Shown here one piece after another: positions 3,001 to 28,682 of a stretch of 64,000 bases of DNA. This DNA is from Anaerolineae bacterium (lineage in GTDB: Bacteria; Chloroflexota; Anaerolineae; B4-G1). Both the position numbers and the translations under genes were made by a program. The stretch lies in contig JBHIET010000002.1 in assembly GCA_046760785.1 (NCBI GenBank), forward strand, positions 17,052 to 81,051, read 5' to 3'. A model generated the notes under the pieces. The model was not told the DNA's origin, made no database searches, and saw nothing but the letters and a program-made list of their open reading frames with translations. Numbering within the stretch: position 1 is the first letter of the stretch; the number at the start of each line of letters is the position of its first letter.

Positions 3001-4385
3001 TGGTGACTGACACACTGCCGGCTGCATTGGACTTTCGGAGCGCCACGCCCACCTACGTCCGCAACGGCGCGGCGATCACCTGGACGTTGGGCAGCCTGGG
3101 GGTGGATCAGCAACGGCTGTACACGATCACAGCCCGGGTCACGGAGACCGTAGGAGCCGGTGTACCGCTGACCAACACGGCCAGGGTGGAGGGCACTTCG
3201 CAACCCGGTGTGGTGGACGAGGAGCGGGCGTACTCAGACGGCGCTCTGGCCACGGCTACCACCGGCTATCCCGATCTACTCGTCAGCAAGAGCGGGCCGC
3301 CGGTGCGCTCCCCGCTTCAGACCATCGCTTACACTGTTGCCTACACCAACGTTGGCGTGGTACGGGCCGAGGGGGTGTGGATCACGGACACGCTGCCCAT
3401 CTCGCTGACTGGTGTGGTCTCTGCCACGTCGGCCGGGGCAGCGGTAGAGCACGTGGGGCAGGTCGTCACCTGGACGCTGACCGCCCCGGTGAGCCGGGGG
3501 GTGAGTGGCCGCATTTGGATCACAGCCACCGTCTCGCCGACGGTTCGTGAAGGGGATGTGCTGACCAACGTGGTATCCGTCGAGGTCGTCACGACGACGG
3601 AGCAGGTGTTGGGGAACAACAGCGGACTGGTTACGACTACCATCCAGATGCCGTCGCTGGTCATCACCAAGACGGCGCATCCCTCGCCGGTGAGACCAGG
3701 AAGCCTGCTGACCTACACCCTCACCATCTCCAATACCGGGTTGGGCGACGCGACCGGCCTGGTCGTCAGCGACACGGTGCCGCCGAACACCGCCTATCGG
3801 TGGTGCAGCGGCGGTGATACGTGCGCCCACAATGGCGATGTGGTCACCTGGACGTTGGCTTCTCTGGAGGCCGCTCAGCAGGCCCAGGTCTCCTTGACCG
3901 TGTTGGTGGATGATGATACCATCTCCGGCACGACCGTCCTGAACCAGGCGTATAGTGTTACCTGTGCTCAGGGGGTGATGGCTACCGGCGCGCCGTTGAG
4001 CACCACGGTGGCTCTGGTGAGGGGGGTGAGCCTGGAGCCTGCGACTCTTGGGGCTTCCGTCTCGCCTGGCGAAAGCGCCGTCTACACGCACACGCTGACC
4101 AATCTGGGCAACGCTGTGGCGACGTTCGATTTGGCAGTGAGCAGCCCGCCGCCGGGCTGGACTTTTAGTCTCGATCCGCCTGGGGCTATCGTGGACCTGG
4201 CTCCAGATAGCACGGCGTTCGTTGCGCTGACGGTGCAGGCTCCCTCCGGCGGTACCGGCCAGGCAGTGGCACTCATTACGGCCACCTGGCATGGCGCGCC
4301 GAGCGTATTTGCCACGGCGCAGGATACGACGACCATTGGCTATGCTTACATCTACCTGCCGCTGGCGCTGCGAAACTATCGCTGA
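1..4385 (+). CDS. Large secreted/cell-surface repeat protein with parallel beta-helix repeats and multiple DUF11-like repeats (5' partial). The reading frame is open to position 1, so the gene starts upstream of the window.
   Basis: Frame open upstream of the GTG at 48 and still encoding beta-helix-like repeats (CHIYGNGDGVRVVDGG). Two blocks of NosD/pectate-lyase-like PbH1 repeats (NNVIAHNAGAGLQ..., GDGSGLYVYTATVTLANG...). DIDGD motifs. Repeated TYTxxVSNTG.../LPxxL DUF11-like modules. C-terminal tail YIYLPLALRNYR. Confidence 0.75.
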   Translation, partial: ISRCHIYGNGDGVRVVDGGLTLERTWVYSNTGDGVQVEGGAYALDNNVIAHNAGAGLQTASSSGALRHNTFARNGVAGAVISSTARFTNTIFYSHTTAISVAAGSTAYLSHTLWYSYTNLSAGPGTLISSTGVYSAPAFYDPDALDYHIRVGSGAINAGLDTGLNEDIDGDPRPLLGFADLGADEFALAISKWVTPSAAPGEVITYVITLEGEESGLVLTDTLHSHLSYTGTVACTVGSCGYLAATRAITWTGSISTAQPAYITYTAQITTWLAAGEEVVNDAWVQTGGEVLHVPEVRTTILPITGTRYVAPAGEDAQNNCRMDWKPCATVQQAVDQALAGDTVKVAQGTYTGSGANVVSITESLTLQGGYTTTNWLESDPVARPTILDGEGSRRVVHITGPVTVTLDGFRLINGFVNNGDGSGLYVYTATVTLANGRVYGNRTDGVGNDGGGIYQEGGSLTITATQVYSNTSDDGDGGGLYYRDGEFALVGSRVYSNTAGSGGGGLYLRSADVTLSGNYIYTNTATGLGGGLYVTGPTALDLTNNVIAANQAGSGGGGLYCDGGGSGYLRHTTIAENGVEGLRVGDFTLALTNTILVSHTVGITTSAAGASVTANYTLWDGTGVYTDTAGGGAITTANDLTGAPKFLAPEALDYHIRGDSAALDAGTWDGVAEDIDGDTRTAALVDVGADQYPLRLARWVSTSSAAPCEVVTHTLRLSNLRATPLAGVVLGDLLDDDVSWAGFVTTTTGSAVYSSSLHTVGWLGTVPAEGGEAVYITYTARITPYLTSGTLLTHVAGISDPISIFGTQPITVSVATLEATLGKSAVLTASLGQVVTYTVAFTVPAGHVAHEPTVVDALPRLVTGGGISTTPALTYVVGSGSPPPTALSADGTLTWTLSTVTATCDAAEVVTVTFAARVRGLADNGDGDLLTNTVTLSYTESSPTGPAHVLVRSHTATLVEPQPAIVKTLPFTTNLGSGDLVTVTIVVSNTGTGVLYDLVVTDTLPAALDFRSATPTYVRNGAAITWTLGSLGVDQQRLYTITARVTETVGAGVPLTNTARVEGTSQPGVVDEERAYSDGALATATTGYPDLLVSKSGPPVRSPLQTIAYTVAYTNVGVVRAEGVWITDTLPISLTGVVSATSAGAAVEHVGQVVTWTLTAPVSRGVSGRIWITATVSPTVREGDVLTNVVSVEVVTTTEQVLGNNSGLVTTTIQMPSLVITKTAHPSPVRPGSLLTYTLTISNTGLGDATGLVVSDTVPPNTAYRWCSGGDTCAHNGDVVTWTLASLEAAQQAQVSLTVLVDDDTISGTTVLNQAYSVTCAQGVMATGAPLSTTVALVRGVSLEPATLGASVSPGESAVYTHTLTNLGNAVATFDLAVSSPPPGWTFSLDPPGAIVDLAPDSTAFVALTVQAPSGGTGQAVALITATWHGAPSVFATAQDTTTIGYAYIYLPLALRNYR

Positions 4386-4448
4386 CGGTAGGGGTTGGTT
4401 GGGTGCCCGGCACTTGTGCGCCGGCGAGCACAAGTGTCGGGCGTTTGA

Positions 4449-5957
4449 TTGTCAGGTGAGGGGACTCGTTGGCAAGACCACAATCGCTATGTGAGCACTT
4501 TGGGGCGTGAGTACATCGTGAGGCACCGTTTGCTTTCCCGGTGGGGTGTTGTGGCCATCACGCTGCTTGCGGCGGTCCTGCGACTGACTCACCTGGGCAG
4601 CAAAAGCTTTTGGTTCGACGAGTGCTTCACCTATACGGTAACTCTGGCATCTCTCAAGGACAGCCTTTCTGCCCTGCTGGTGGCCGGTATTTACTCTCCC
4701 CTCTATTTCTTGCTGTTGCGCCCGGTAACGGCGCTGGCGGGCACCAGTGAGTATGCCTTTCGATTCCTCTCTGCTGCCTTTGGCCTGCTCGCCGTGCCGG
4801 TCATCTATCGCCTGGGTCTTTGCTTGACGGGGAGGGCCACGGGTGTGGTGGCCGCTCTTTTGCTGGCCCTCTGTCCGTTTCACATCTGGTACTCGCAGGA
4901 TGCGCGGACGTACGCACCGATGCTTTTCTTTGGCTTGCTGGCGATGGAGCGTTTTATCCTGCTGCTGCGCGGCCGGCGCAAGTGGGGCTCCTTTGCTCTG
5001 TGTAGCGCCCTGGCCTACCCGATGCATTATATTGCTTTTTCTCTGTTGTACGTTCAGTTGGTATATCTGGTGCCCCGTCTGCGCCAGACCAGGTTGGTAC
5101 GCCGTTGGTTCCTGGCACAGGTAGTGGCGGGAATGCCGCTGCTCCCTTGGTTGGTGCTCTACCTGGTGCGTGGGGTCCGGCCCGCCGGTTTGAGCTGGAT
5201 TCCCCGGCCCGGCCCTCTGGCTCCGCTCTATACTTTGTGGAACATGACTACGGGGGACGCGGAGACGTTCACGCTGCCGGTGGTGGTGCTGGCGCTGGGT
5301 GTGGGGGTGGTTTTCTGGCGTGGCCTGTTGTCCTGGGATCGGGCGCGCAGGTTGCTCGCTTGGTGGTTGGCGCTGCCAGTGGGGTTTCTGTTCCTCCTTT
5401 CGCTGCGGCGTCCCTTTTATGTGGACCGGTATCTCATGGCCAGCCTGCCGGCCTATTTGTTGCTTCTGGCACTGGGGATCGTGACCTGGCGTAAGGTGAC
5501 GTACCGGCTGTTGGCGGGGGCGGTCGTGGTGCTGGCATTGGGGTGGGGGACGTGCCGGTTGTACACTGACCCGTATTTTGCAAAGGAGGATTGGCGAGGC
5601 GCGGCTCTCGCCGTCGAGTCGGAGCTGGAGCGAGGGGACATCGTGGTGCTGGAGGATCCGGAGGCGTTGCTGGGGACGTCGGTTTACCGCACGCGGGAGT
5701 GGCCATACGTGGTTCTGGAGTCGGGGCGAGAGCGCGAGATGCTGGAGCAGGCGATGGCCCGGCACAGCCGGGCCTGGCTGGTGTGGCGCAGTCCCTACGA
5801 GTCCAACCATCGTCTGTCCAAGTCCGCCCCCTTTGACCTGTTTGCCGTGGCGCCCCCGTCAGTCCGGGCCTGGCTGGAAGCCCATCGGGATCGAGTGGGG
5901 CTCGACCTGCGGTTGCCGGGCCTGAGCGTGGTGCGGGTGGATGGAGGGGAACGATGA
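4449..5957 (+). CDS. Polytopic membrane glycosyltransferase, GT-C fold, ArnT/PMT-like (GT39/GT83-type). Start uncertain: TTG at 4449 or GTG at 4518.
   Basis: N-terminal TM followed by the LTHLGSKSFWFDE motif, the W-x-DE signature of ArnT/PMT-family lipid-linked sugar transferases. Many TM segments. Soluble C-terminal domain. Confidence 0.65.
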   Translation: MSGEGTRWQDHNRYVSTLGREYIVRHRLLSRWGVVAITLLAAVLRLTHLGSKSFWFDECFTYTVTLASLKDSLSALLVAGIYSPLYFLLLRPVTALAGTSEYAFRFLSAAFGLLAVPVIYRLGLCLTGRATGVVAALLLALCPFHIWYSQDARTYAPMLFFGLLAMERFILLLRGRRKWGSFALCSALAYPMHYIAFSLLYVQLVYLVPRLRQTRLVRRWFLAQVVAGMPLLPWLVLYLVRGVRPAGLSWIPRPGPLAPLYTLWNMTTGDAETFTLPVVVLALGVGVVFWRGLLSWDRARRLLAWWLALPVGFLFLLSLRRPFYVDRYLMASLPAYLLLLALGIVTWRKVTYRLLAGAVVVLALGWGTCRLYTDPYFAKEDWRGAALAVESELERGDIVVLEDPEALLGTSVYRTREWPYVVLESGREREMLEQAMARHSRAWLVWRSPYESNHRLSKSAPFDLFAVAPPSVRAWLEAHRDRVGLDLRLPGLSVVRVDGGER

Positions 5958-7093
5958 AAGGGCTGCGACCGATTCTCCTGCTTTTTCTGGCCTTTCGTCT
6001 GAGCCTGCTGGCCTTCTGGCCGGCCGATCAACTGGCCCGCTGGTCAGATTACGACTATTACTACGAGATCGCCGGTTGGGTGGAGCAGGGCCGGCTACCC
6101 TATCTCCACTACTGGGTCGAGTACCCGCCGCTGTTTCCTTACCTTTCGGTCCTGCTGTATCTGCTCGCGCCGCACTATGCGGCCTACGTGACCGGGCTGG
6201 CATTGGTGCAACTGGGTTTTGAGGCTGGCTCTTTGGTGCTGCTCTACCGGTTGGCCCGGCGGGTGGTGGGGGAGGAGCGGGCCGGCCGGGTGGCGTGGAC
6301 GTACGCACTGCTGTTCGCGCCGCTGGCGACCTGGTGGCTGAGTTTCGATGCCATCTCTATCTTCTTCCTGCTGCTGGCGGTCGAGCGGTGGCTGGCGGGC
6401 CGCCGGGTGCAGTCGGCGCTGGCGGTGGGTGCAGGCGGGCTGGTGAAGTGGTTGCCGTTGCTCTTCCTCCCTGTGGTTACCCGTTTCCGCCGGAGCTGGC
6501 GGGAGGCGGCAGGCTACGCGGCGGTAGCGCTGACCGTCGTCGGCTTGGTGCTGGGTTTGCTGGCCCTCCTCAGCCCGACGTACACCCTCGCCTCGCTCCG
6601 CTCGCTGGGGAGTCGTGCTTCCTGGCAGACGGTGTGGGCTTTGCTGGACGGGAACCTGGGGACAGGGGCCTACCAGGCCAGCCGCCTCGACCCCGCTGCT
6701 GCGACCCTCTCGCAGGGCAACCCGGCCCGCGTGCCGACGTGGCTTACCTTGCTCCTCTTCGGGGCGCTGTACCTGTGGCTGTGGTGGCGGACGCCTGGCA
6801 GGAAGGAACCCCGGTGCGTGCTCCGCTTCACTGCGCTGACCGTGCTGGTTTTCTTCCTCTGGTCACGGGGCTGGAGCCCCCAGTGGCTGGGGACGTTGGT
6901 GCCGCTGGTGTTGCTATCGCTTCCTCTGGAGCGGGCCACATTGTACCTGGTGGTGCTGACGTTCGTCAACATCGCCGAGTGGCCGGTGTTGCTTGGGCGG
7001 GGGATGAACGGGTGGCTGTGGGTGACGATCCCATTGCGCACTGGCCTTTTCCTCCTGCTGGCTGTAGAATTGTGGCAAAAGCTGCGAGAGTGA
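5954..7093 (+). CDS. Polytopic membrane protein, DUF2029/GT87-like putative glycosyltransferase
   Basis: ATG overlaps the upstream stop (ATGA). Motif DYDYYYEIAGW...LPY...WVEYPPLFPY resembles the D/Y..YPP signature of GT87/DUF2029 mannosyltransferase-like proteins. About 10 TM helices. Confidence 0.5.
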   Translation: MKGLRPILLLFLAFRLSLLAFWPADQLARWSDYDYYYEIAGWVEQGRLPYLHYWVEYPPLFPYLSVLLYLLAPHYAAYVTGLALVQLGFEAGSLVLLYRLARRVVGEERAGRVAWTYALLFAPLATWWLSFDAISIFFLLLAVERWLAGRRVQSALAVGAGGLVKWLPLLFLPVVTRFRRSWREAAGYAAVALTVVGLVLGLLALLSPTYTLASLRSLGSRASWQTVWALLDGNLGTGAYQASRLDPAAATLSQGNPARVPTWLTLLLFGALYLWLWWRTPGRKEPRCVLRFTALTVLVFFLWSRGWSPQWLGTLVPLVLLSLPLERATLYLVVLTFVNIAEWPVLLGRGMNGWLWVTIPLRTGLFLLLAVELWQKLRE

Positions 7094-7097
7094 GCCG

Positions 7098-8225
7098 TTG
7101 GTGAGCCATCCGATGAAAAAGGCAAAGCGTGCCGCTGTTTATACCGTGAAGCTTATGGCGTTGCCTGTGTTCCTGCTGGGTGGGATCGAGCTGGCGCTGC
7201 GGCTTTTCCTGGGGATGCCGGAGGGGCAGTTCTGCGCTTTGTTTCCGGGGCCTAACGGCCTCTACCCGCCCAACCGCCGCATGGTGGTGGACTTTGGCGT
7301 GGTGCCCTACGTCGTCGAGACCAACTCACTGGGCTTTCGCGGGCCGGAGATCAGTGTGCAAAAGCCGCCGGGCGTGTTTCGTATCGCCGCGTTGGGCGAC
7401 TCGATGACGGATGGCTTCTTTGTGGACAACGACGCCACCTTCCCTTATCTGCTCCAGCAGAACCTGGAGGCAGGGGGTTGGACCGTCGAGGTGGTCAACG
7501 CGGCCCACGGTGGCGGCACGATCGACACCCAGTACGCGATGCTCGAAGCGCACGTGCTACCGCTCGACCCGGACCTGGTGATTCTCACCTGGACGCCCAA
7601 CGACATCGGCGACCTGATGACCGGAACGCCCACTCAAATGCCGGGGCAGGGTTTCACCTCGGGACCTCGGGCGGCGCTAGGGTGGCTGGCCTGCCACTCG
7701 GCCATCAGCGAGGGGCTGCTGGATGTGTACTTTCGTAGCCTTTCGGACAAGTACCGCTGGTTGACCCGCCAGAGCGGCGAGATCATCCTCGACGATCGGC
7801 GTTACCAGGTCCCCGGCAGCACCGACTTTGCCCGGAACGCGCAGTACACGCTGGCCGGTGACGCGGAGGCGGACGGGCAGATTCTCGTCGAGCCGTTCAC
7901 CCCGGCCACAGAAGCGGCGATTCAGACCTATCTGGAGTGGTTGGGCCGTATGGAGCGGGTGCTGCGCGAGCGCGGGATTCGGTTCGTGTTCGTCTACCTC
8001 CCGGCCTACTCGCAGGTGTACCTGCCGGGCAGCTCGATGCGCATACGAGATATCCTGCGCGACGAGTGCGCGCGACTGGAGGTGCCCTTTCTCGATCTGA
8101 CGCCCGTGTTCCAGGAGAGAGGCCAGGAGCGGGCATTGGATATGGCTCCCCTGGATTACCACCTCAGTCCCTATGGCAATCAGGTTGTGGCCGATGCACT
8201 GGCCGATTTCCTGTCGGCAAAGTGA
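7098..8225 (+). CDS. SGNH/GDSL-family hydrolase with N-terminal membrane anchor (possible ATG start at 7113)
   Basis: Block I motif IAALGDSMTDG (GDS-x). N-terminal hydrophobic segment. Embedded in the glycosyltransferase array, so possible O-acyl modification. Confidence 0.7.
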   Translation: MVSHPMKKAKRAAVYTVKLMALPVFLLGGIELALRLFLGMPEGQFCALFPGPNGLYPPNRRMVVDFGVVPYVVETNSLGFRGPEISVQKPPGVFRIAALGDSMTDGFFVDNDATFPYLLQQNLEAGGWTVEVVNAAHGGGTIDTQYAMLEAHVLPLDPDLVILTWTPNDIGDLMTGTPTQMPGQGFTSGPRAALGWLACHSAISEGLLDVYFRSLSDKYRWLTRQSGEIILDDRRYQVPGSTDFARNAQYTLAGDAEADGQILVEPFTPATEAAIQTYLEWLGRMERVLRERGIRFVFVYLPAYSQVYLPGSSMRIRDILRDECARLEVPFLDLTPVFQERGQERALDMAPLDYHLSPYGNQVVADALADFLSAK

Positions 8226-9439
8226 TTCGGGCGGGTGAGATTTTCTGGAAAAGAGCGGTGTCCCGACGAGTGTCCTTGCTGATTCTGCTTGCGTTGGCTC
8301 TGTTTGCGCTGAACGCCTGGCTGGTGTACGCGCTCTTTACCTCGCGTGCCTCCATCGCCGTGTGGGATTTTCACCCCCGTTGGGTGGGGTTACGCGCGAT
8401 GTTGCGCGATGGGGCGGACCCGTACAGTGAGGAGGTGACGCTGGCGATCCAACGGCAGATGCTGGGCCGGCCCGCCCGCCCGGACGAGGATCAGGAGGCT
8501 TTTGCCTATCCGCTGCACGTGATGGTGCTCATCGGCCCACTGACCCTCTTGCCGTTGCCGGTGGCGCAGGCTTTGTGGTTTTCGCTGCTTGAGACCGGCC
8601 TGCTGCTCTTTATCTTTTTCGCGCCCCGTGCCGTCGGTTGGCGCCCTACTCCCCGGCTGCTGGCGTTGACTGCGCTCTTCACTCTGGGGCTGTATTCCAC
8701 CGTGTGGGCGCTGATTCTGGGGCAGACCTCTATCGTGGTGGCCGCCCTCATCGCGCTGGCGTGGTGGGGGCTGCGGGTCGGACGATGGGGGCTGGCCGGG
8801 GCCTGCCTGGCACTGGCGACGATCAAGCCCCAGATGACCTTTTTGCTGGTGCCGGGCCTGCTGGCCTGGGCGGTCTACCGGCGGCAACTGCGGCTGCTGG
8901 TCGTCTTCTCTGTGATCTTGGGCGGATTGGTCCTGCTGCCTGTCCCCTGGTTGCCGACCTGGCCGCTGGCGTGGTTGGCGGCGGCCGGTCGCTACGCCAG
9001 CTATACCGCTTTCGATCCACCTCTGGTGCTGCTGACGTGCTCCACCTGGTTAGCGGGCCTGGTCGCTGCCCTGCTGCTGGGCTGGACCGTGTACCGCTGG
9101 TGGCGTGCGGAGCGACGGAGAGATGCTTTTAATTGGGGACTGAGCATGCTCCTCGTCGTCAGCGGGTTGATCGCTCCACGCACCAGTCACGTCAATCAAC
9201 TGGTGTTGTTGTTGCCTCTCTTTTTCCTCTTCAAGCGGCTGTCAAAGGGGGGGATTGTCGCCGTCGTGGAAGCCGGGCTGCTGGCCGGGCCGTGGCTGCT
9301 GGACTGGGGGCTGGCTCCTCTCTTGGGTAGCTTGCAACACAGAGTGTGGCAGAACCAGTTCATCAGCCCCATCTTGCCGGTTGGATTGGCCCTGGCGTTG
9401 GTGTGCTTCAGTCCGTGGTCAGCGCGGGGAATGGATTAA
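8222..9439 (+). CDS. Polytopic membrane protein, DUF2029/GT87-like putative glycosyltransferase
   Basis: GTG start overlapping the upstream stop (GTGA). DF..W..LRAML.DGADPYS...FAYPLH pattern similar to the 5954 paralog. About 10 TM segments. Confidence 0.5.
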   Translation: MIRAGEIFWKRAVSRRVSLLILLALALFALNAWLVYALFTSRASIAVWDFHPRWVGLRAMLRDGADPYSEEVTLAIQRQMLGRPARPDEDQEAFAYPLHVMVLIGPLTLLPLPVAQALWFSLLETGLLLFIFFAPRAVGWRPTPRLLALTALFTLGLYSTVWALILGQTSIVVAALIALAWWGLRVGRWGLAGACLALATIKPQMTFLLVPGLLAWAVYRRQLRLLVVFSVILGGLVLLPVPWLPTWPLAWLAAAGRYASYTAFDPPLVLLTCSTWLAGLVAALLLGWTVYRWWRAERRRDAFNWGLSMLLVVSGLIAPRTSHVNQLVLLLPLFFLFKRLSKGGIVAVVEAGLLAGPWLLDWGLAPLLGSLQHRVWQNQFISPILPVGLALALVCFSPWSARGMD

Positions 9440-11922
9440 TGGGCTACTGCTGTTATTCTCTGAAGCGCCTCAACCTTGTCGTGACCATCGCGGTCGTTCT
9501 GGTTCAAACGGTAGGGGCCTACTTTTTCGGCAGCGGTTTCGACTTCGCTCTCTTCCGTGAGGCGACGTTGGACCACAACCCTTATGTCTGGCTCCCAGCG
9601 TATGGGTACTGGTTGCTCCGGCCGATTATGCTGCTTCCTTCTCGTCTTTCCCTGATCATAATAGTTCTTATCTCCTCTAGCTTGATGGCTTACACCGGGT
9701 ACAAGCTCACTGGAAGTGGGCTTCCGGCTTTACTCTCTTCAGCAGGTTTCCTCTCGGCGGAGACGGGTCAGATAGACGGCTTCGTCGCGTTGGGGCTGGT
9801 CTTGGGAGTCTTGGCCTGCGAACGACGGAAGCCTCACTTGCTGGGGGGCGCGCTTCTGTTGATGTCCCTGAAGCCGCACATTACCCTGGTCGCGGCCGTG
9901 TGGCTGATTGTGTACCTGCGCGATTGGCGCACGCTCCTGATCCCGGCGGGCGTATTCTTGCTCTCTCTGCTCACGGATGGGTTGTGGCCACTGGGTTTGC
10001 TCCAATCCCCGCCTCACGTTACCATGGTACCGCATAACATCTCGCTGTGGAGGCTCTGCGGCCCGTCTCTTCTTCCTTTGCTGGCCTTGCCTTTTCTGTT
10101 CGGTAGGCGCGATCCCCGGCGCGCGGTGACGCTGGCCGTCGCTGCGTCTGCTCTGGCGATGCCTTACTACAATTTCTACAGCCTGGACGTACTCTTCGGT
10201 GTGGGCGTTTCTCCCTGGCTGGTCCCTCTGACCTATATCCCGTTCCTGCCCTGGCCGGCGCAGTGGGAAGCCTGGCACGTCCTCGTATTGGCGTTCGTCC
10301 CGGCCCTGGGGCTGATCCTGCTGCTGGTGCGGCAGCGCTCTGGGTGGCGACGCTCTCGGTGGCTTCGGAGTTGGTACCGGCCGCTGCTGATCCTGCTGAC
10401 AGCGTTTCTGGCGCGGACGATCCACCTGCAGGGCCGCGCACTCTGGTACGACGAGTCCTTCGCCGCCCTGTACGCCTCTTTGAGTCCCGGCCAGATGATC
10501 TACGGCACGGTGGCGCCGGTGGCAGGGGCCGGCGCGGCCGACGTCCATCCCCTGCTCTACTACTTCCTGCTCCATGGCTGGATGGGGTTGGTGGGCCACT
10601 CTCCCCTGGCGCTGCGTTTCCTCTCTGTGGCTTTGGGCATGATCGCCGTGGCCCTGCTCTGGCGGCTGGCGGCCTGGTGCTTTGGTCGTCGGACGGGTTT
10701 GGTGGTGGGGTTGCTGGCGGCGGTGAACCCCTTCCACGTGGCCTACTCTCAGGAGGCACGGATGTACGGGTTGCTGGGCCTGGCGGCAGTGACAGCGGCT
10801 TGGGGGTTGCTGCGAGCACTGGAGGGCGCAGAGGAGCAAGGGACAACACGCAACACGCAACACGCAACACGCGACACGTTTCACGTTCTTGGTCATTGGT
10901 CATTGTTCATTGTGGGAGCTGCCCTCACCCTCTACGCCCACAACCTGGGTGCCTTTGTCCTGCTGGCTTTCCATCTGTTGGTCGTCGTCCGCCGCCGCTG
11001 GTGGCGTCGCCTGCCGGCCCTGGCCCTGGCCGACCTGGCCGCGCTGGCCCTCTTCGGTCCTTGGCTGGTGCTGGTGTTGCCGGGGCAGGTGGGTTTTGTG
11101 GGAAGAGGGTATTGGCTGACGCCGCCGGGCGTTGAGGAGGCGGTTCGTGCCATCATGCTCCCGCTCCTCACCTTCTACGAGCCTGCGCCGCTATGGCTCC
11201 TGGGGTTGAGCCTCTTCACAGGCGTGTTGCTCCTGACCCTGCTGATCCTGCGGCTCTGGCGGACCCGCTCGCGGGCCGGTTGGTTCCTCTTGCTGTGCTG
11301 GGTGCCGATCTTGCTCATCCTGCTCGCCTCCCTCTGGCGACCGGTCTACCTGGAGCGGGCACTGTTGCCCTCGGAGCTCTTTTATCTGGTGTCGGTGGGA
11401 TGGCTCCTGGCGCGGGGAGGGCTGCCGCGTCTCTTGCGCCTGGCGCTCGCGCTGCTGCTGGCGCTGGCGACACTGGGAGCGCTGGGGGTTCACTATACCT
11501 ACGCTCGTTTCCCCCGCCCCCCATTCGCCCGGCTGACCGCCTTTCTGCGGGAGAGAGTGACTCACGGGGAGGTGGTGGTCCACGACAACAAACTCACCTT
11601 CTTCCCGGCTCACTATTATGACCCCGCGCTGCCCCAAACTTTCTGCCCCGATCTGCCCGGCAGCGGCTCGAACACGCTGGCGCTGCCCACCCAAGAGGCA
11701 TTGGGGCTCTTTGCCACCCCCATCAGCCAGACGGTGGCCAGCGGGGTGACGGGGGTGTGGTACGTGGCCTTTGACCGCACCTGGGAGGAGTATCGCGTCC
11801 TGGGCTACGCCGACGCGCCCAACCGGACCTGGCTGCGTGCCCGCTGCCACCGGGAGGGGGAGGTGCACACGATCGCCGATCTGGAGATCTACCACTTTGC
11901 GAATTGTGAGGCAGAGCCGTGA
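9439..11922 (+). CDS. Two-domain polytopic membrane glycosyltransferase: N-terminal DUF2029-like domain fused to a C-terminal ArnT/PMT-like GT-C domain
   Basis: ATG at 9439 overlaps the upstream TAA by 1 nt (TAATG). First ~300 aa carry DFALFREATLDHNPYVW (DUF2029-like). Second half carries RTIHLQGRALWYDESFAALY (W-x-DE ArnT/PMT motif). Contains an in-frame heptamer repeat tract at 10844-10913. Confidence 0.6.
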   Translation: MGYCCYSLKRLNLVVTIAVVLVQTVGAYFFGSGFDFALFREATLDHNPYVWLPAYGYWLLRPIMLLPSRLSLIIIVLISSSLMAYTGYKLTGSGLPALLSSAGFLSAETGQIDGFVALGLVLGVLACERRKPHLLGGALLLMSLKPHITLVAAVWLIVYLRDWRTLLIPAGVFLLSLLTDGLWPLGLLQSPPHVTMVPHNISLWRLCGPSLLPLLALPFLFGRRDPRRAVTLAVAASALAMPYYNFYSLDVLFGVGVSPWLVPLTYIPFLPWPAQWEAWHVLVLAFVPALGLILLLVRQRSGWRRSRWLRSWYRPLLILLTAFLARTIHLQGRALWYDESFAALYASLSPGQMIYGTVAPVAGAGAADVHPLLYYFLLHGWMGLVGHSPLALRFLSVALGMIAVALLWRLAAWCFGRRTGLVVGLLAAVNPFHVAYSQEARMYGLLGLAAVTAAWGLLRALEGAEEQGTTRNTQHATRDTFHVLGHWSLFIVGAALTLYAHNLGAFVLLAFHLLVVVRRRWWRRLPALALADLAALALFGPWLVLVLPGQVGFVGRGYWLTPPGVEEAVRAIMLPLLTFYEPAPLWLLGLSLFTGVLLLTLLILRLWRTRSRAGWFLLLCWVPILLILLASLWRPVYLERALLPSELFYLVSVGWLLARGGLPRLLRLALALLLALATLGALGVHYTYARFPRPPFARLTAFLRERVTHGEVVVHDNKLTFFPAHYYDPALPQTFCPDLPGSGSNTLALPTQEALGLFATPISQTVASGVTGVWYVAFDRTWEEYRVLGYADAPNRTWLRARCHREGEVHTIADLEIYHFANCEAEP
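10844..10913. repeat. Ten-unit heptanucleotide tandem repeat tract (CAACACG x4, CGACACG, TTTCACG, then TCATTGG/TCATTGT units) lying in-frame inside the GT-C gene
   Basis: Read directly: caacacg caacacg caacacg caacacg cgacacg tttcacg ttcttgg tcattgg tcattgt tcattgt. Encodes the low-complexity peptide TTRNTQHATRDTFHVLGHWSLFIV between TM segments. Confidence 0.8.
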
Positions 11923-13574
11923 GTTGGGAAGTCTCGTGGAAGGAATACCGCTGGGCGGCGGCGGTCGCCTTGGTGGTGGTGGCTCTCTCTACCATCCCGT
12001 ATGCCGCCGGTTACCTGGCCCAGACTCCTGACCTGCGCTTTGCCGGAGCCGTTTTCGATCTGGAGGATTATCACAGCCACCTGGCCAAGATGTGGCAGGG
12101 ATACTGGGGGGAGTGGCGCTACCGGCTGCTCTTTACCTCCGAGGAGCACGAGGGTGCGTATCTGCAGACGTTCTACGTGGCGTTGGGCCATTGTGCACGA
12201 CTGCTGGGATTGGGCCTGCCGCTCACCTACCACCTGGCACGGGTTGTGGCGGGCGTGGTGCTCCTGCTGACCGTCTACCGCTTCGTCGCGCTCTTCACCG
12301 CCGGGGAGGTGCGGAGCGTTGCCTTCCTGCTGGCGGCCACCTCTTCCGGCCTGGGATGGCTGGTCGAGGGGCTGTGCCCCACGCCGCCGGGTGGGATCTC
12401 CCCCATTGATTTCTGGCTCATTGACGCCTACACCTTCTTTTCCCTGTTCACCTTTCCCCATTTCTCCGCTGCCGTCGCGCTCTTACTTTCGCTGTACGGG
12501 ATGCTGCTGCGGTTGGCGGAAGGTGTGTCGCCTGGAAGCGTGCCACGTTTGCGAGATGTGGTGGCAGTGATTCTCCTATCCTGGGGATTGGGCCTCGTCC
12601 ACCCCTATGCCCTGCTCCTGGCCGACCTGGTTCCGGCGCTCTATCTGATCTGGCGCACCGTCGTGGAACGACGATTGCCCCTGCGCCTGCTGCTCGCCCT
12701 GGTTGCGATGGGACTGGCCCAGGCACCGCTCCTGCTGTACGACTACCGCGTCTTTGCCACCTCACCTGTCTTTGGTGCCTGGTCTGCTCAGAACCTCACC
12801 CTCTCTCCGCCTCCTCTGCACTACCTCCTGGGTTACGGCGTCGTGGCGCTGCTGGCAGCGTGGGGAGTTCGTTCGGCCCTCCGGGCTTCCCGACGCGTTC
12901 CGTTCCTGCTTCTGTGGGTTGTTGTCGCCTTCTCTCTGGCGTACTTTCCCTGGGGGTTGCAGCGCCGCTTCGTCGAGGGCCTCCACGCGGGGTTGTGCGT
13001 GCTGGCGGGGTACGGACTGGTGGAGGGGCTGCTGCCCGTGTTGGCCCGACCACTGGGGCGGCTGGCCCGTCTCCTGCACTACAGTCCCCGGCGGCTGCGC
13101 TGGTTGGCGCGGGGGCTGGTCCTGGCGCTGGCCGCTCTCTCCAATCTCTACCTGATCGCCACCTACACGCTGGCGGCAGCGGCCTGGCACCCGGACCTGT
13201 TTCACTCTGCCGATCAAGTCGCAGCCGGGGAGTGGCTAGCGGCCAACACCGAATGGCAGGAGACGGTGCTGGCTGCTTATGAAACCGGCAATTGGCTCGC
13301 CGGGACCATCGGTCGCCGGGTAGTGCTGGGCCACTGGGCGGAGACGATGGATTGTGAGGCGAAGCGGGAGCAGGTGGCAGCCTTCTACTCGGAGGGCGCG
13401 TCTGAGGCGGAGCGGCGCGGGTTGTTGGAGCGATGGAACGTGCACTACGTCTACCTTGGCCCGGAGGAGCGGGCGCTGGGTGGGTTCGATCCAGCAATGA
13501 CCTCATACCTGAAGCTGGTGTTCCAGCAGGGGGATGCATCGGTCTACCGGGTGACGCTGGAGGGGGCACCGTGA
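11919..13574 (+). CDS. Polytopic membrane protein of the same array (GT-C-like, family not recognised)
   Basis: GTG start overlapping the upstream stop (GTGA). At least 12 predicted TM helices. Soluble C-terminal ~120 aa domain. Positioned between ArnT-like paralogs. Confidence 0.45.
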   Translation: MSWEVSWKEYRWAAAVALVVVALSTIPYAAGYLAQTPDLRFAGAVFDLEDYHSHLAKMWQGYWGEWRYRLLFTSEEHEGAYLQTFYVALGHCARLLGLGLPLTYHLARVVAGVVLLLTVYRFVALFTAGEVRSVAFLLAATSSGLGWLVEGLCPTPPGGISPIDFWLIDAYTFFSLFTFPHFSAAVALLLSLYGMLLRLAEGVSPGSVPRLRDVVAVILLSWGLGLVHPYALLLADLVPALYLIWRTVVERRLPLRLLLALVAMGLAQAPLLLYDYRVFATSPVFGAWSAQNLTLSPPPLHYLLGYGVVALLAAWGVRSALRASRRVPFLLLWVVVAFSLAYFPWGLQRRFVEGLHAGLCVLAGYGLVEGLLPVLARPLGRLARLLHYSPRRLRWLARGLVLALAALSNLYLIATYTLAAAAWHPDLFHSADQVAAGEWLAANTEWQETVLAAYETGNWLAGTIGRRVVLGHWAETMDCEAKREQVAAFYSEGASEAERRGLLERWNVHYVYLGPEERALGGFDPAMTSYLKLVFQQGDASVYRVTLEGAP

Positions 13575-15250
13575 ACCGAGTTCGGCGAGACCTGGCGGCG
13601 CTGTTCGTTCTCTCCCTGACGGTGCGGCTGGCCGTAGCCGCCCTCATCCCCCGGCCCGGTTACATGGACGCGGCCTACTACGCCGCCGGAGCGGTGCATC
13701 TTGCCGGGGGGGGAGGGGTGAATGATCCTTTCCTCTGGAACTATTTGGATGACCCCACGGGCATTCCTCACCCCGGGTTCCTCTACTGGATGCCGCTCCC
13801 CTCTCTCCTGGCGGCTCCCTTTGCCTCTCTCTTCCCGGGCTCCTTCTTTGCCCTCCAGCTTCCCTTTGCGCTTCTCTCCGCCCTGCTCCCCCTCGTCGCC
13901 TACGGGCTGGCCTGGGAAGTCGCCGGTCGGCACCGTGCGGCCTGGCTGGCGTCGCTCCTTACGCTCTTCAGCGGCTTCTTCTTCCCCTACTGGACCCTCC
14001 CGGAGACGTTTGCTCCGTTTGCCCTTTTCGGCAGCTTGGCGCTGTGGCTCGCCGGAAGATGGCGGCTGACTACTGACCACTGGCTACTGACTACTGACTA
14101 CTGGCTACTGACTACTGGCTACTGGCTACTGACTGGGTTGCTGGTCGGCCTGGCTCACCTCACCCGCGCCGATGGCATCCTGTTGTTGCCCGTGGTCGCC
14201 CTTGTCCCTCTGGCCTTCGCTCAACCACACAACGCCCAGCACGCAACACGCGCTGTCCTGAGCTTGTCGAAGGGCAATACGCAATACGTAACACGTTCGT
14301 TCATTGTTCATTGTTCATTGATCCTCCTCGGCTATCTCCTTGCGATGGCTCCCTGGTTCCTCCGCAACCTCTCCCTCATCGGCACCCCTCTCTCTCCGGC
14401 CGGCACCAAGACCCTCTGGCTGCGCACCTACGACGACATTTTCTGCTATGGCTGTGCTCTCTCCCCCCGCTCTTACCTGGCCTGGGGGTGGGGGAACATC
14501 TGGCACTCCAAATTGTGGGCGCTGGGGGTGAACCTGGAGCGGTTCCTGGCGGAGGACTGCCTGGTCTTCCTGCTGCCTTTCGTTCTCGTTGGCCTGTACC
14601 GCTTGCGCCATCGCCTCTCTTTCACCCTTGCCCTCATCTACTTTTTCCTCATTTACTTCCTCCATTCCCTGGCCTTTACTTTTCCCGGCCCTCGCGGCGG
14701 CTTCTTCCACGCCAGCGCTCCTGCCTTGCCCTTCCTCTTTGCCGCCGCTGCGGAGGGATTGGAGGCAACGCTGGGCTGGGCGGCCCGGCACCGGAGCTGG
14801 AAGCGGGGGCAGGCCCAGCTGATCTTTGGCACAGCGACGGTGGTGGCGGCGGTGATCCTGAGCGGCTACGCGACGGCGGGTAAACTGCTCGCCTGGCGGA
14901 GCGCTGACCAGGCTTATCTGGAGATTGATGTGTGGCTGGATGGGCACGACGTGCCGGATAGTACAATGGTCATGGTTGGCAACCCCCCTGCTTTTTGGTA
15001 TCATACTCGTAGACCGGCCGTGGTTGTGCCCAACGGTGATTCCGACGCGTTATTGGAGGTCTGCGCCCGTTACCGGGCGGATTACGTCGTGTTGGACGAG
15101 AACAGGCCGGGGGCGTTGGCCGGGGTGTATGAGGGTGCGAGAGTGACAGGGTTGCGGTTGATGGCGACATTCGACGGCGCGCGGGTCAGACTCTACCGCC
15201 GGGTAGAGGGGCCGGAGGGAGGATGTTTCGGCGTTTTCGACGCTTTCTGA
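13571..15250 (+). CDS. Polytopic membrane glycosyltransferase, ArnT/PMT-like GT-C fold
   Basis: GTG start overlapping the upstream stop (GTGA). N-terminal TM then YMDAAYYAAGAVHL loop typical of ArnT/PMT-like enzymes. Many TM segments. C-terminal soluble domain. Carries two in-frame repeat insertions. Confidence 0.6.
   Translation: MNRVRRDLAALFVLSLTVRLAVAALIPRPGYMDAAYYAAGAVHLAGGGGVNDPFLWNYLDDPTGIPHPGFLYWMPLPSLLAAPFASLFPGSFFALQLPFALLSALLPLVAYGLAWEVAGRHRAAWLASLLTLFSGFFFPYWTLPETFAPFALFGSLALWLAGRWRLTTDHWLLTTDYWLLTTGYWLLTGLLVGLAHLTRADGILLLPVVALVPLAFAQPHNAQHATRAVLSLSKGNTQYVTRSFIVHCSLILLGYLLAMAPWFLRNLSLIGTPLSPAGTKTLWLRTYDDIFCYGCALSPRSYLAWGWGNIWHSKLWALGVNLERFLAEDCLVFLLPFVLVGLYRLRHRLSFTLALIYFFLIYFLHSLAFTFPGPRGGFFHASAPALPFLFAAAAEGLEATLGWAARHRSWKRGQAQLIFGTATVVAAVILSGYATAGKLLAWRSADQAYLEIDVWLDGHDVPDSTMVMVGNPPAFWYHTRRPAVVVPNGDSDALLEVCARYRADYVVLDENRPGALAGVYEGARVTGLRLMATFDGARVRLYRRVEGPEGGCFGVFDAF
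14064..14133. repeat. Ten-unit heptanucleotide tandem repeat (TACTGAC/TACTGGC) in-frame inside the GT-C gene
   Basis: ggctgac tactgac cactggc tactgac tactgac tactggc tactgac tactggc tactggc tactgac. Encodes RLTTDHWLLTTDYWLLTTGYWLLTG. Confidence 0.85.
14226..14320. repeat. Composite repeat element: CACGCAA-type heptamers + 24-nt core CTGTCCTGAGCTTGTCGAAGGGCA + CAATACG/TAACACG heptamers + GTTCATT x3, in-frame in the coding sequence
   Basis: Same unit types as 10844-10913, with an added core at 14253-14275. On the + strand it encodes AVLSLSKG. Its complement encodes ALRQAQDSA (LRQAQD-type repeat peptide). Confidence 0.8.
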
Positions 15251-16638
15251 CGCTGTTGGCTATCGGCGATGTGTTACTCACCCTGGCGGCCCTGGCGTTG
15301 GCCGCCTTCTTGCGCCACGCCCTGCCGTGGGGCAAACCACTGGGGGCGTCAGAGTACCCTCTCGTGGCACCGGTCGTCTACGGCGTGGTGGCCCTGGTCT
15401 GGCCGGTGGCTTTCCAGATGCTCAAGGTCTATGACTCGCACCTGGCCACCAGTGCCCGCGGCCAGATTCGACGGATCACTCCGGCTGTCCCGATCTCGGT
15501 CTTTGTGTTGGGAGGCTTCCTGTATTTTACCTACCGCGAGGTGCCACGCCTGCTGGTGGTCTACTTCGCCGGGCTGGATTGGCTCCTGCTCGCTTCGATG
15601 CGCGTCGTGGCGGTGGCGTTGCTGCGCACCCTCCGGGACGTGCGGCGCACGGCCGGGCGCGTCCTGATCGTCGGAGCAGGCGAGACGGCTGTGGAAGTGG
15701 CCGAGATCATCAACCGTGAACTGTCCCCGGCCTATCACGTCGTCGGGCTCGTCGCCGACGATGAAGACGATGAGTCGGAACAGGCTGGCCGCTGGCCCAT
15801 TCTCGGACGGATCGCCGAGACGGGCGTCGTTGCCTGGCAAAAGGGATGCGACGAGATCATCATCGCCCTGCCCTCCGAGCGTCACGAGGACATTGATGCC
15901 ATCGTCTACGAATTGCAGGAACAGCCGGTGCACATTTACATCGTCCCGGACCTCTTTCGCCTGGCGCTGGTGCGCGCCCGTGCCGAGACCCTCTTTGGTG
16001 TGCCGCTGGTGGGGCTGCGCGAGCCGGTGATTGATGGGGTGGATTGGGCGATCAAGCGCACCTTCGATCTGCTGCTGACGCTGGTGGCGCTTCCCCTCGC
16101 CCTGCCGGTGATGGCGCTCGTCGCGCTGGCGATCAAACTGGATGATGGAGGGCCGGTTCTCTTCCAGCAAGAACGTATCGGAGAAAATGGACGTCGTTTT
16201 CGTATGCTCAAATTCCGCACCATGGTGCCGGGGGCCGAAAGGTTGCAGGCCCAGGTGACCCGGCTGGATGAGAAGGGCAGTCCGGTATACAAAGTATCTC
16301 ACGACCCGCGCGTCACCAGAGTGGGGCGTTTCTTGCGCCGCTGGAGCCTCGACGAGCTTCCCCAACTCTTCAACGTCTTGCGCGGGGAGATGAGCCTGGT
16401 GGGGCCGCGCCCGGAGCAGGTCTTCGTCGTCGAGCAGTATGAGCCGTGGCAGCGGCAACGGTTAGCCGTGCCACCGGGGATGACCGGCTGGTGGCAGGTC
16501 AGCGGCCGCAGTGACCTGCCCATGCACCTGAACACGCAATATGACCTGTTCTACATCCGCAACTACTCGCTGTGGCTCGACCTCAAGATTCTGTGGTTGA
16601 CGGTTTGGGCTGTGTTGCGGGGGGAAGGGGCGTATTGA
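15223..16638 (+). CDS. Polyprenyl-phosphate sugar-1-phosphate transferase (WbaP/WcaJ-like initiating bacterial sugar transferase)
   Basis: N-terminal TM segments. Central Rossmann-like region. C-terminal Bac_transf-type block [13 protein letters not shown]...[16 protein letters not shown]...LWLDLKILW. Good RBS GGAGGGAGG before the ATG at 15223. Confidence 0.85.
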
Positions 16639-16640
16639 GG

Positions 16641-17756
16641 ATGCAAAAGGTCTTGCTGGTCTTTGGTACCCGACCAGAGGCGATCAAAATGGCCCCGGTG
16701 GTTAGGGAGCTAAGCAGATACCCCACCGAGTTCAAGGTCAAAATTTGCCTTACCGCTCAACATCGCGAGATGCTGGATCAGGTTTTGACCCTTTTTGATA
16801 TTGAGGCTGATTACGACCTGAACATTATGCGGGATAGGCAGACTCTCTCGCGGGTCACGGCCGAGGTCCTGACAGGGGTAGAGGAGGTGATAAAGACAGA
16901 GAACCCAGGCTGGGTCCTGGTGCAGGGCGATACGACCACAGCGATGGCCGCCGCTCTGGCGGCGTTTTATCAAAAAGTCCGGGTGGCCCACATAGAGGCT
17001 GGGCTGAGGACCTGGAACAAAGCTCAGCCCTATCCAGAAGAGATCAACCGCGTGATCGCCGACGTGGTCTGCGACCTACACTTTGCCCCGACGGAAGCGG
17101 CCAGGTGGAACCTGCTGTGCGAAGGGATCGGCGCGGGAAGCATCTTTGTCACGGGCAACACAGTCATTGACGCGCTGTTGGAGACTGTGGAGAGGGAGTA
17201 CGACCTGGAGAGTGGGCCTTTGCGGAACATCCCGCCGGACAGGAGAATCATCCTCGTTACTGCCCACCGGCGGGAGAACTTTGGGCCGCCCCTGGTCAAT
17301 ATCTGCCGCGCCCTCCAGAAAATCGCTCGACGATATGAGTCCGACGTACACCTGGTCTATCCCGTGCACCTTAACCCCAATGTACAGGGGGTGGTCTATC
17401 CCATTTTGGAGGGGGTAGCCAACATCTCTCTGCTGAAGCCGCTGGACTACCTGTCCTTTGTCCACTTGATGAACAGAGCCTATCTCGTCCTGACCGATTC
17501 GGGCGGCTTGCAGGAGGAGGCACCCAGCTTGGGCAAGCCGGTGCTGGTTCTGCGTGAGGTCACAGAGCGGCCGGAGGCGGTGGAGGCGGGAACGGTCAGG
17601 GTCGTGGGGACGGATGAGGAGCGGATCATGGCGGAGGTAGTGCGGTTGCTGGAAGATGCTGGAGCCTACCGCCGGATGGCCCAGGCAGCAAATCCGTATG
17701 GCGATGGCCACGCCGCCGCCCGTATCGTGAACACGTTGTTGTCGCTGCGGGAGTGA
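16641..17756 (+). CDS. wecB: UDP-N-acetylglucosamine 2-epimerase (non-hydrolysing)
   Basis: MQKVLLVFGTRPEAIKMAPV N-terminus, HIEAGLRT, and DSGGLQEEAPSLGKPVLVLR are diagnostic of WecB/MnaA. The six-frame ORF extends to 16572, but the ATG at 16641 fits the family N-terminus. Confidence 0.9.
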   Translation: MQKVLLVFGTRPEAIKMAPVVRELSRYPTEFKVKICLTAQHREMLDQVLTLFDIEADYDLNIMRDRQTLSRVTAEVLTGVEEVIKTENPGWVLVQGDTTTAMAAALAAFYQKVRVAHIEAGLRTWNKAQPYPEEINRVIADVVCDLHFAPTEAARWNLLCEGIGAGSIFVTGNTVIDALLETVEREYDLESGPLRNIPPDRRIILVTAHRRENFGPPLVNICRALQKIARRYESDVHLVYPVHLNPNVQGVVYPILEGVANISLLKPLDYLSFVHLMNRAYLVLTDSGGLQEEAPSLGKPVLVLREVTERPEAVEAGTVRVVGTDEERIMAEVVRLLEDAGAYRRMAQAANPYGDGHAAARIVNTLLSLRE

Positions 17757-17763
17757 AGATAGG

Positions 17764-19221: not shown

Positions 19222-19222
19222 T

Positions 19223-22525: not shown

Positions 22526-22538
22526 GGAGCGAGCAACC

Positions 22539-23462: not shown

Positions 23463-23489
23463 GTCGAGTTTGGGGGTGGAGGAGGACAT

Positions 23490-26511: not shown

Positions 26512-26618
26512 GAGTCGCTCGAAATGGCCGCTATGTCTTCAAAGCGGTGCGGTTTGCCTGGGGGCGATAATGGGTCGGGTGGGGCGAGTTTTCCTAGAAT
26601 AAGTTGATGGAGTAGCTT

Positions 26619-28650: not shown

Positions 28651-28682
28651 GCTCTAAAGTCTCAGTGGCCAGGAGGTGAGAG

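Follow-up and report, generated by a model that had tools for sequence, protein, structure and literature searches.

Eight co-directional open reading frames (ORFs) on the + strand, here called g1 to g8, occupy positions 4449-16638 of a 64,000-nucleotide stretch of contig JBHIET010000002.1 from an Anaerolineae bacterium, the whole of which we refer to as the window. The portion at 4449-15250 holds six genes for membrane glycosyltransferases of the GT-C class, carrying seven GT-C modules between them, plus one SGNH hydrolase gene. Gene order in related loci shows the array to be conserved as a unit, and the version seen here belongs to a kind of gene block that is typical of the phylum Chloroflexota. 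As to its function, our leading reading, held tentatively and with rather less than even confidence, is that the enzymes of the array could act in succession outside the cytoplasmic membrane to build a surface glycopolymer on a polyprenyl-diphosphate primer, either a wall-linked, an adhesive or a sheath polysaccharide.

Conservation of the array across Chloroflexota

Related loci were collected by scanning one genome per GTDB species with a g6 profile, which returned 80 loci, all from Chloroflexota. Every ORF of these loci was compared with the window proteins and clustered all against all, and neighbourhood counts were taken from the 36 loci with full flanks. The g6 protein itself is identical to one in an NCBI "Anaerolineae bacterium" metagenome-assembled genome, and all named g6 homologues come from Anaerolineae or Chloroflexota. 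The core order GT87 (g2)-PMT_2 (the C-terminal half of g5)-GT87 (g4)-g6-g7 recurs down to ~30% identity, and the five-gene core was found in 20 of the 36 full-flank loci. At least three GT-C families were present in 31 of these 36 and at least five in 25, with up to ~9 families in one array, including c4, c6, c10, c22 and c23. Family c4 directly follows g7 in 32 loci and c6 has a C-terminal domain like that of g6; neither occurs in the window, and the same is true of c10 (PMT_2, ~680 aa), c22 (GT87) and c23 (PIG-V-like). An earlier note on this DNA had treated the array as one entity, and synteny bears this out.

In some Anaerolineales loci (L029, L030 and L033, 10-19 kb), g6 is present in two or three paralogous copies with additional GT87 genes between them, from which we conclude that arrays grow by local duplication. 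Distant g6+PMT_2 pairs (32-34% identity) that come without the remaining core, near an ABC ATPase and a DUF4340 protein, were observed in L041, L044, L048, L064 and L085; they hint at a separate subfamily with a different partner system.

Within the window the genes are tightly packed. A 4-nt overlap (ATGA) joins g1 to g2, GTGA junctions join g3 to g4, g5 to g6 and g6 to g7, and a 1-nt overlap (TAATG) joins g4 to g5, while g2 and g3 are separated by 4-19 nt according to the start chosen. The largest overlap, 28 nt, lies between g7 and g8, with a GGAGGGAGG ribosome-binding site ahead of g8; GGAGG-type sites stand upstream of g2, g7 and g8. The start of g1 is ambiguous (4449 TTG or 4491 GTG). 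These stop/start overlaps are consistent with translational coupling from g1 to g8, without being proof of it. Promoter and terminator signals in 4200-17000 did not rise above shuffled expectation and are uninformative on operon boundaries. The order of the upstream giant surface-protein gene and g1-g2-g3-g4-g5, as well as that of g5-g6-g7, was also recovered in independent Logan assemblies from five sequencing runs; the arrangement is therefore no assembly chimera. The ORF and junction check at 4449-16638 thus agrees with the eight consecutive genes and ATGA, GTGA and TAATG junctions described in the earlier note, whose count of seven GT-C enzymes holds for modules but not for genes: there are only six, and the eighth gene of the run encodes a Bac_transf phosphoglycosyltransferase (PGT).

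The GT-C enzymes

Two kinds of GT-C enzyme, ArnT/PMT-like and GT87-like, had been proposed from the sequence, and both are recovered by Pfam (cut-offs of 26 bits for PMT_2 and 25 bits for GT87, PF09594), with no transporter classification. The first gene, g1 (4449-5957), encodes a PMT_2-type enzyme (36 bits), whereas g2 (5954-7093; 36.5 bits) and g4 (8222-9439; 43.4 bits) encode GT87-type enzymes, g2 being of the GT87/DUF2029 type. Both modules meet in g5 (9439-11922), an 827-aa protein matching GT87 in its N-terminal half (32.8 bits) and PMT_2 in its C-terminal half (38.3 bits). The product of g6 (11919-13574) has no Pfam match and is discussed below as a GT-C_A enzyme with an AglB/ArnT-type outer domain, and g7 (13571-15250) encodes a divergent PMT_2-clan enzyme with a sub-cut-off match (20 bits). 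The genes g2, g4, g6 and g7 are core members; orthologues of g2 and g4 were found in 29 and 47 loci, respectively. In profile comparisons with hhalign, g1 matched the PMT_2 family at 100%, g6 matched it at 95.9% and g7 at 97.3%, with g7 reaching 99.5% against family c4, and the two GT87 families were joined to each other at 85%. In L091, the closest relative, the g1 orthologue (2017-3452) is split into ORFs of 360 and 118 aa, by a frameshift or a sequencing error.

The accessory gene g3 (7098-8225) encodes an SGNH/AlgX-like esterase or acyltransferase (Lipase_GDSL_2 56 bits, ALGX 34 bits), which is the SGNH hydrolase already recognised inside the array; a single N-terminal transmembrane segment indicates that it is membrane anchored. 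Among relatives it is present only in L017, and it is absent in L091. The last gene, g8 (15223-16638), encodes the polyprenyl-phosphate PGT, with 232 bits to Bac_transf and 449 bits to the NCBIfam model TIGR03025 (EPS_sugtrans; cut-off, 296 bits).

Hydropathy analysis gave 8-15 hydrophobic segments for g1, g2, g4, g5, g6 and g7, as is characteristic of polytopic GT-C enzymes, and each has an acidic residue in the first outer loop: D57-E58 in g1, D338-E339 in the C-terminal half of g5, the invariant D50 in g6, D33 in g7, D49 in g4 and D32 in g2. These acids are conserved at 85-100% across 29-42 members per family. The W-x-DE motifs noticed earlier are W55-F-D57-E58 in g1 and W336-Y-D338-E339 in g5, both conserved across their families. 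Further conserved positions are E56 and P58P59 besides D32 in g2, D49-F50 in g4 and R199-A-D201-G besides D33 in g7. GT-C enzymes such as ArnT, PMT, STT3, Emb/Aft and PimE act outside the membrane with lipid-phosphate-linked donors (bacterial glycans are summarised in PMC11194591), and the natural reading is that the array likewise serves an extracytoplasmic pathway that would use polyprenyl-phosphate sugars.

The window proteins match PMT_2 (PF13231) only and have no match to PMT (PF02366) or the MIR domain, which separates them from the GT39 PMT enzymes; the NCBI name for g5 is nevertheless "glycosyltransferase family 39 protein." Similarly, no array protein matched the curated NCBIfam ArnT models, which separates them from GT83 ArnT, and Pfam scans of the window recovered no arn genes of the 4-amino-4-deoxy-L-arabinose context. 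The likeness to ArnT is one of fold only, ArnT being the closest solved structure to the C-terminal half of g5. The earlier note had framed the enzymes by actinobacterial protein O-mannosylation. This frame is not supported in a host from Anaerolineae whose enzymes are PMT_2 rather than PMT/GT39 and have no MIR domain, and whose surface and candidate acceptor proteins in the window are devoid of Ser/Thr/Pro-rich linkers.

The fusion of a GT87 and an ArnT-like domain in g5, also reported before, was confirmed by both Pfam matches. It comprises a GT87-like module (~residues 1-300) and a core PMT_2 enzyme (~residues 310-827). Apart from the window, the fusion was seen in a single ENA protein, P0122, which comes from another sample and is 86% identical; its size equals that of the 827-aa fusion gene that adjoins the g6 homologue of contig L091. 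All remaining g5 homologues are stand-alone proteins of 500-540 aa that cover residues ~310-827 only. From this distribution, the fusion is genuine but recent and lineage specific. The GT87 match of the N-terminal half spans only profile positions 7-145 of 237, and in the structural model the C-terminal half is confident while the N-terminal half has a predicted local distance difference test score (pLDDT) of <50, which leaves the GT87-like module a putative one.

Sequence searches of g4, g5 and g6 against Protein Data Bank (PDB) chains gave nothing useful. An AlphaFold2 model of g6 built on 30 homologues was a helical bundle with a mean pLDDT of 92.3, and all 28 of its Foldseek matches in the PDB at an E value of ≤1e-3 were GT-C enzymes (STT3/AglB/PglB, DPY19, AftA, ArnT, AftD and ALG9). 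On this model, g6 has the GT-C fold, and the enzyme left unclassified in the earlier note can now be assigned to GT-C by model, fold matches and profile comparison. The family is large, with 3552 representatives at 50% identity matching at an E value of ≤1e-30, and has no Pfam-A model. Families c4 and c6 of relatives are likewise without annotation.

STT3/AglB head the g6 fold lists, the overall fold and a homologous C-terminal globular domain are shared, and the g6 family profile matches AglB-S2 (3vu0) at an E value of 0.0025. The candidate assignment of g6 as an oligosaccharyltransferase (OST) was nevertheless rejected. In the alignment to AglB-S2, "SWWDYGNW" stands opposite "AAYETGNW" of g6, so that the acid, Gly and Asn are kept and both Trp are lost; the family consensus at this position is a-l-E-T-G-N, that is, WWDYG is replaced by x-x-E-T-G. 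OSTs have a TIxE/SVSE motif in outer loop 5, and the conserved stretch in the corresponding loop of g6 reads Q291-N-L-T294-L-S296-P297-P298, with TLSP in its place and no Glu. Moreover, g6 scores similarly for ArnT, AftA, ALG12 and PMT as for STT3/AglB/PglB, and ArnT-type enzymes reportedly have this outer-domain architecture as well. Because the OST motifs are lost and this architecture is shared with ArnT-type enzymes, we have not filed g6 as an OST.

Neighbouring genes and candidate functions

Downstream of g8, on the same strand, Pfam and NCBIfam identify a cytoplasmic glycan-building block (16641-28647) that was overlooked in the earlier note together with the PGT and the Wzy_C gene that follows it. 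It encodes, in order, a UDP-GlcNAc 2-epimerase (wecB, 505 bits), a Wzx flippase (MOP flippase, 126.5 bits), an unknown protein, a phosphodiesterase-family protein, two GT2 enzymes, a methyltransferase, a second unknown protein, two GT4 enzymes and a WecG/TagA-family transferase (WecB/TagA/CpsF, 129 bits). Several window proteins have their best NCBIfam matches in TuaB/C/H of teichuronic acid synthesis and EpsA/E of exopolysaccharide (EPS) synthesis. Next on the + strand is an 831-aa protein of the O-antigen ligase/polymerase type, Wzy_C-TPR (30252-32747; Wzy_C 56 bits, plus TPR families), with 13 hydrophobic segments and a K/R-rich N terminus; from this hydropathy profile its Wzy_C loop and its 363-aa C-terminal TPR domain are both predicted to lie outside the membrane. 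By sequence it has no solved homologue except for the TPR part. With an initiating PGT, a Wzx flippase, cytoplasmic glycosyltransferases and a Wzy_C protein, these components of a Wzx/Wzy pathway are present, and the PGT, Wzx, epimerase, GT2, GT4, WecG/TagA and Wzy_C-TPR genes together set the array in the context of a polyprenyl-diphosphate-linked glycan pathway. Orthologues of Wzy_C-TPR adjoin arrays in 12 of the 80 loci and g8-type PGTs in 11; one or the other lies within 10 kb in 12 of the 36 full-flank loci.

Between the WecG and Wzy_C-TPR genes we also observed an insertion (28683-29926) with a helix-turn-helix protein, a PIN-like protein (4-nt overlap) and a nucleotidyltransferase-like ORF, which from reading of the translations only looks like a small toxin-antitoxin module.

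From gene content, enzyme fold and family, conserved catalytic-type residues and synteny, all of which were observed, we infer donors, order of action, acceptor and product as follows. The PGT encoded by g8 would load a sugar-phosphate onto polyprenyl phosphate, and in this genome the epimerase, WecG/TagA, GT2, GT4 and methyltransferase proteins would lengthen the primer in the cytoplasm before its transfer across the membrane by Wzx. On the outer side, the six GT-C proteins, whose seven modules each belong to a different family, would add sugars from polyprenyl-monophosphate-sugars, one linkage type each, and the SGNH protein g3 would add or remove acyl groups. Wzy_C-TPR would then polymerise the product or ligate it to its final acceptor. 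Tad pili and large TadE/TadG pseudopilin-like proteins would be produced along with this polymer, probably under shared regulation, and serve with it in adhesion or gliding. We favour a surface glycopolymer because a polysaccharide with many linkage types would account for five to nine distinct GT-C enzymes better than simple protein O-mannosylation would, because the window block resembles teichuronic acid and EPS loci, and because the candidate acceptors in the window are without Ser/Thr/Pro-rich linkers. The envelope of Litorilinea aerophila has multiple layers whose composition is uncertain, and the extra envelope layers of Chloroflexota are thought to be polysaccharide or protein (PMC13319060).

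Several observations weigh against this proposal. Among the proteins scanned at 15223-32747 there was no Wzz-type chain-length regulator of the polysaccharide co-polymerase (PCP) class, tyrosine kinase, LCP-type wall ligase or export component, and no polyprenyl-phosphate-sugar synthase or small GtrA-type flippase was recognisable in the 64-kb window. The sugar and glycosyltransferase block of the window is outside the conserved core and may serve a separate polymer. In one class of relatives, class B below, there are no cytoplasmic glycosyltransferases or Wzx within 10 kb, and TadE/TadG are the sole products that are neither enzymes nor regulators, so that a protein acceptor fits equally well. 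The Wzy_C domain, finally, cannot tell a polymerase from a ligase or an O-oligosaccharyltransferase.

In the main rival explanation, the array serves the Tad system by glycosylating its proteins: the GT-C enzymes would work with Wzy_C-TPR as an O-oligosaccharyltransferase, and Flp pilins or the large TadE/TadG proteins would be the acceptors. We consider it possible, though on balance doubtful. In the window, a LuxR-type response regulator and a DegS-like histidine kinase (32860-34728) lie between the glycan genes and a Flp pilin gene with a G/LVEYAL processing motif (34836-34991), and a Tad locus follows (35638-51276; by Pfam a 1302-aa TadE giant, TadE, TadG-VWA, CpaB, CpaE, CpaF, TadB and TadC), all on the + strand. 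Of the 20 full-flank loci with the five-gene core, 11 have Tad pilin or pseudopilin genes no more than 10 kb away, and these are arranged in at least three different ways. A link to Tad-associated proteins, which the earlier note had raised in parentheses, fits this synteny.

In class A (L007, L014, L025, L028, L039, L047, L055 and L067) the array is directly followed by the same LuxR/DegS pair as in the window and then by flp, cpaB, cpaE, cpaF and tadB, the pilins being near-identical. In L025, as in the window, Wzy_C-TPR lies just upstream of the response regulator, histidine kinase and flp genes. Class B (L052, L053, L056, L059, L060, L066, L070-72, L075 and L086) has a co-directional cluster PGT-Wzy_C-TPR-c6-GT87-PMT_2-GT87-g6-g7-c4 that continues with PspA-like-GAF kinase-two OmpR regulators and ends with TadE-TadG-like-TadE on the same strand, after which the strand flips to unrelated genes. 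"CpaE" matches in class B were discarded as Tad evidence, as they are receiver domains of the OmpR-type regulators. The arrangement in both classes and the TPR domain predicted outside, beside the catalytic loop of Wzy_C-TPR, agree with a protein acceptor, as do three PT-rich linkers in one class B TadE protein. There are precedents in TfpW, which acts on a pilin (bioRxiv 10.1101/2020.04.19.049825), and in an O-glycosylated Chloroflexota archaellin (PMC12488501). However, no known system for O-glycosylation of pilins or other proteins uses anywhere near five to nine GT-C families, the OST signature motifs are not kept in g6, Tad genes are missing within 10 kb of about half of the core loci, and the window acceptors are without Ser/Thr/Pro-rich regions, the mature Flp being a hydrophobic peptide of ~37 aa.

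Among the Tad genes we also observed big proteins (390-1302 aa) with TadE/TadG N termini fused to CARDB, GH115_C-like, VWA or PT-linker domains, at 35638-39546, 41824-42573 and 42800-45049 in the window, 10001-16208 in L092 and 10001-16501 in L093. Their domain content suggests adhesin-like modules on Tad minor pilins in Chloroflexota.

Two of the array enzymes carry in-frame heptanucleotide repeats, identified with TRF on the + strand: CAACACG (5 copies) and TTGGTCA/GTTCATT (3.4-4.3 copies) at 10844-10913 in g5, and CTGACTA (9.9 copies), GCAATAC (2.1 copies) and GTTCATT (3.1 copies) at 14066-14320 in g7 (14066-14134 and 14274-14320). L091 has different heptamers at the same site of g5, and ~3 units in g7 versus ~10 in the window. 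Repeats recur at the same loop in the g7 orthologues of seven species, and taking both gene families together the same loops carry them in at least seven species, the unit varying with the species and the copy number from 3 to 23. In the window and related loci, 11 of the 43 non-redundant period-7 arrays fall in g7 orthologues, which hold 5.5% of the bases (~4.7-fold enrichment), and 8 of the 43 in orthologues of the C-terminal half of g5 (7.9% of bases), including two in L091 g5. Further sites were seen in L016 (8922-8989 and 12102-12253), L017 (12176-12566) and L020 (4065-4131 and 7416-7584), and also in L013, L014, L026 and L091. The g7 gene of L017 is frameshifted inside the repeats, and short-read contigs end at repeats. 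Haemophilus glycosyltransferases undergo phase variation through simple-sequence repeats (PMC2651432), and the repeat loops of g5 and g7 may be hypervariable or phase variable.

A bolder form of the protein-acceptor idea would be a Chloroflexota-wide machine of five to nine GT-C enzymes, PGT and Wzy_C-TPR for which Tad pilins or the large surface proteins with TadE/TadG pseudopilin tethers are the direct substrate of complex glycan assembly, with hypermutable heptamers in g5 and g7 diversifying the output. We think this unlikely; if true, it would be without precedent as a multi-GT-C assembly line for protein glycosylation and as a pilus-linked one outside Proteobacteria. We found no description of a Chloroflexota array of this kind or of Flp pilin glycosylation in open-access papers and bioRxiv.

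The donor sugars bear both on the glycopolymer proposal and on another alternative. A DPM1/Ppm-like polyprenyl-phosphate-sugar synthase adjoins the array in L007 and L037 only, which counts for the proposal and is indirect support for polyprenyl-phosphate sugars as donors; the window has no homologue of the L007 Ppm-like GT2, and its own GT2a and GT2b resemble cytoplasmic transferases. With no synthase in the window, the donor synthase must be encoded elsewhere. The Ppm-like genes of these two loci and the PIG-V-like family c23 of relatives would also be expected if the array made a membrane-anchored lipoglycan of the lipomannan (LM)/lipoarabinomannan (LAM) kind, with the GT87 and PMT_2-clan enzymes extending a glycolipid and with PGT and Wzy_C-TPR in a separate pathway. 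We regard this as improbable, given that the PGT and Wzy_C-TPR genes recur in the same orientation as the array and closely spaced to it, and that no PimA/PimB-type starter enzymes for phosphatidylinositol-mannoside were recognised, the GT4 matches being generic.

The earlier note had instead suggested, as its main idea, that the array is a dedicated glycosylation pathway for the adjacent giant surface protein, which we consider very improbable. The window holds the C-terminal 1445 aa of this protein (48-4385, + strand; DUF11, in Pfam now "CLIPPER," 150 bits; Beta_helix 59 bits), whose full length in Logan contigs is 4812 aa. A gap of 64 nt separates the end of its gene from g1, which has the same orientation, and the protein is 21.7% Ser+Thr. 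The giant gene neither overlaps g1 nor is coupled to it, however, and the gap has a weak hairpin. A homologue of the giant adjoins the array in only two of the 80 loci (L009, whose g6 is 69% identical, and L020), or one of the 36 with full flanks. The closest relative, L091 (82-86% identity), shares the g5 fusion and has no giant upstream; small, unrelated genes in the opposite orientation take its place. The other large ORFs near arrays encode cytoplasmic proteins (SecA, a STAND kinase, a GAF/HD signalling protein and UvrA) and not surface proteins. By the refuting condition that the earlier note itself set, namely that the array is not conserved next to surface-protein genes in related genomes, the link to the giant is weak; that to Tad surface proteins holds.

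Related systems and meaning for Chloroflexota

Assembly of glycans by GT-C enzymes on the outer face of the membrane is a known principle, here found in a new phylum with new partners. A close likeness to a surface glycopolymer pathway of the proposed kind is the network for arabinogalactan and LM/LAM in mycobacteria and corynebacteria (PimE, MptA-C, EmbA-C and AftA-D), where several GT-C enzymes likewise act outside on a lipid-linked cytoplasmic primer with polyprenyl-phosphate sugars, one linkage each. GT87 members are common to both, and AftA, AftB, AftD, EmbA and PimE are structural matches of g6. The array differs in being a single coupled array in Chloroflexota with a Bac_transf PGT and Wzy_C-TPR instead of WecA/GlfT/LCP and a link to Tad, and our analysis gave no GT53, GT85 or GT89 assignment.

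In the GtrA/GtrB/GtrC, ArnC/ArnT, CsbB/YfhO and polyprenyl-phosphoribose systems (PMC11194591), a GT-C enzyme modifies a finished or growing glycan outside with a polyprenyl-monophosphate sugar. In these Gtr-like systems a lone GT-C enzyme is accompanied by a neighbouring synthase and flippase, in contrast to the six to nine GT-C genes here and no synthase or small flippase in the window. TfpW of Pseudomonas aeruginosa group IV is a GT-C enzyme encoded beside pilin genes that glycosylates a type IV-filament subunit outside (bioRxiv 10.1101/2020.04.19.049825). TfpW combines several functions in one enzyme, and its substrate is a type IVa pilin, whereas the present array is a multi-enzyme one beside Tad (Flp) genes.

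The tua operon of Bacillus subtilis and the O-oligosaccharyltransferase systems WsaP/WsaB, PglL and PilO also combine a Bac_transf PGT, Wzx, GT2/GT4 and a Wzy_C protein, whereas here there is no chain-length regulator, a large outer TPR domain is present on the Wzy_C protein and a GT-C array is attached. WsaP/WsaB glycosylate S-layer proteins. In Caulobacter the holdfast polysaccharide is made together with type IV/Tad pili, and g8 weakly matches holdfast HfsE. The cyanobacterial hps locus (PMC12288463) is a further case from bacteria that glide or live attached to surfaces; there, the link of polysaccharide genes to those for pili or pseudopilins is both functional and physical. Both the hps and the holdfast loci have cytoplasmic GT2/GT4 enzymes and no GT-C array.

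Tad pili occur in about one-third of Chloroflexota genomes, and the archaellin of L. aerophila is O-glycosylated by unknown enzymes (PMC12488501). How the multilayered, apparently monoderm envelopes of Chloroflexota are built and how their surface filaments are glycosylated are open questions (PMC13319060, PMC12488501), and the block of PGT, Wzy_C-TPR, at least five GT-C enzymes, regulators and Tad pilin or pseudopilin genes offers concrete candidates for that chemistry. The g6 family puts a large, unannotated GT-C family of >3500 clusters at 50% identity on the map. Should the product turn out to be a wall or sheath polymer, Chloroflexota would have their own version of the arabinogalactan/LAM logic of mycobacteria; with a pilus protein as acceptor, the array would represent a new kind of protein-glycosylation system.

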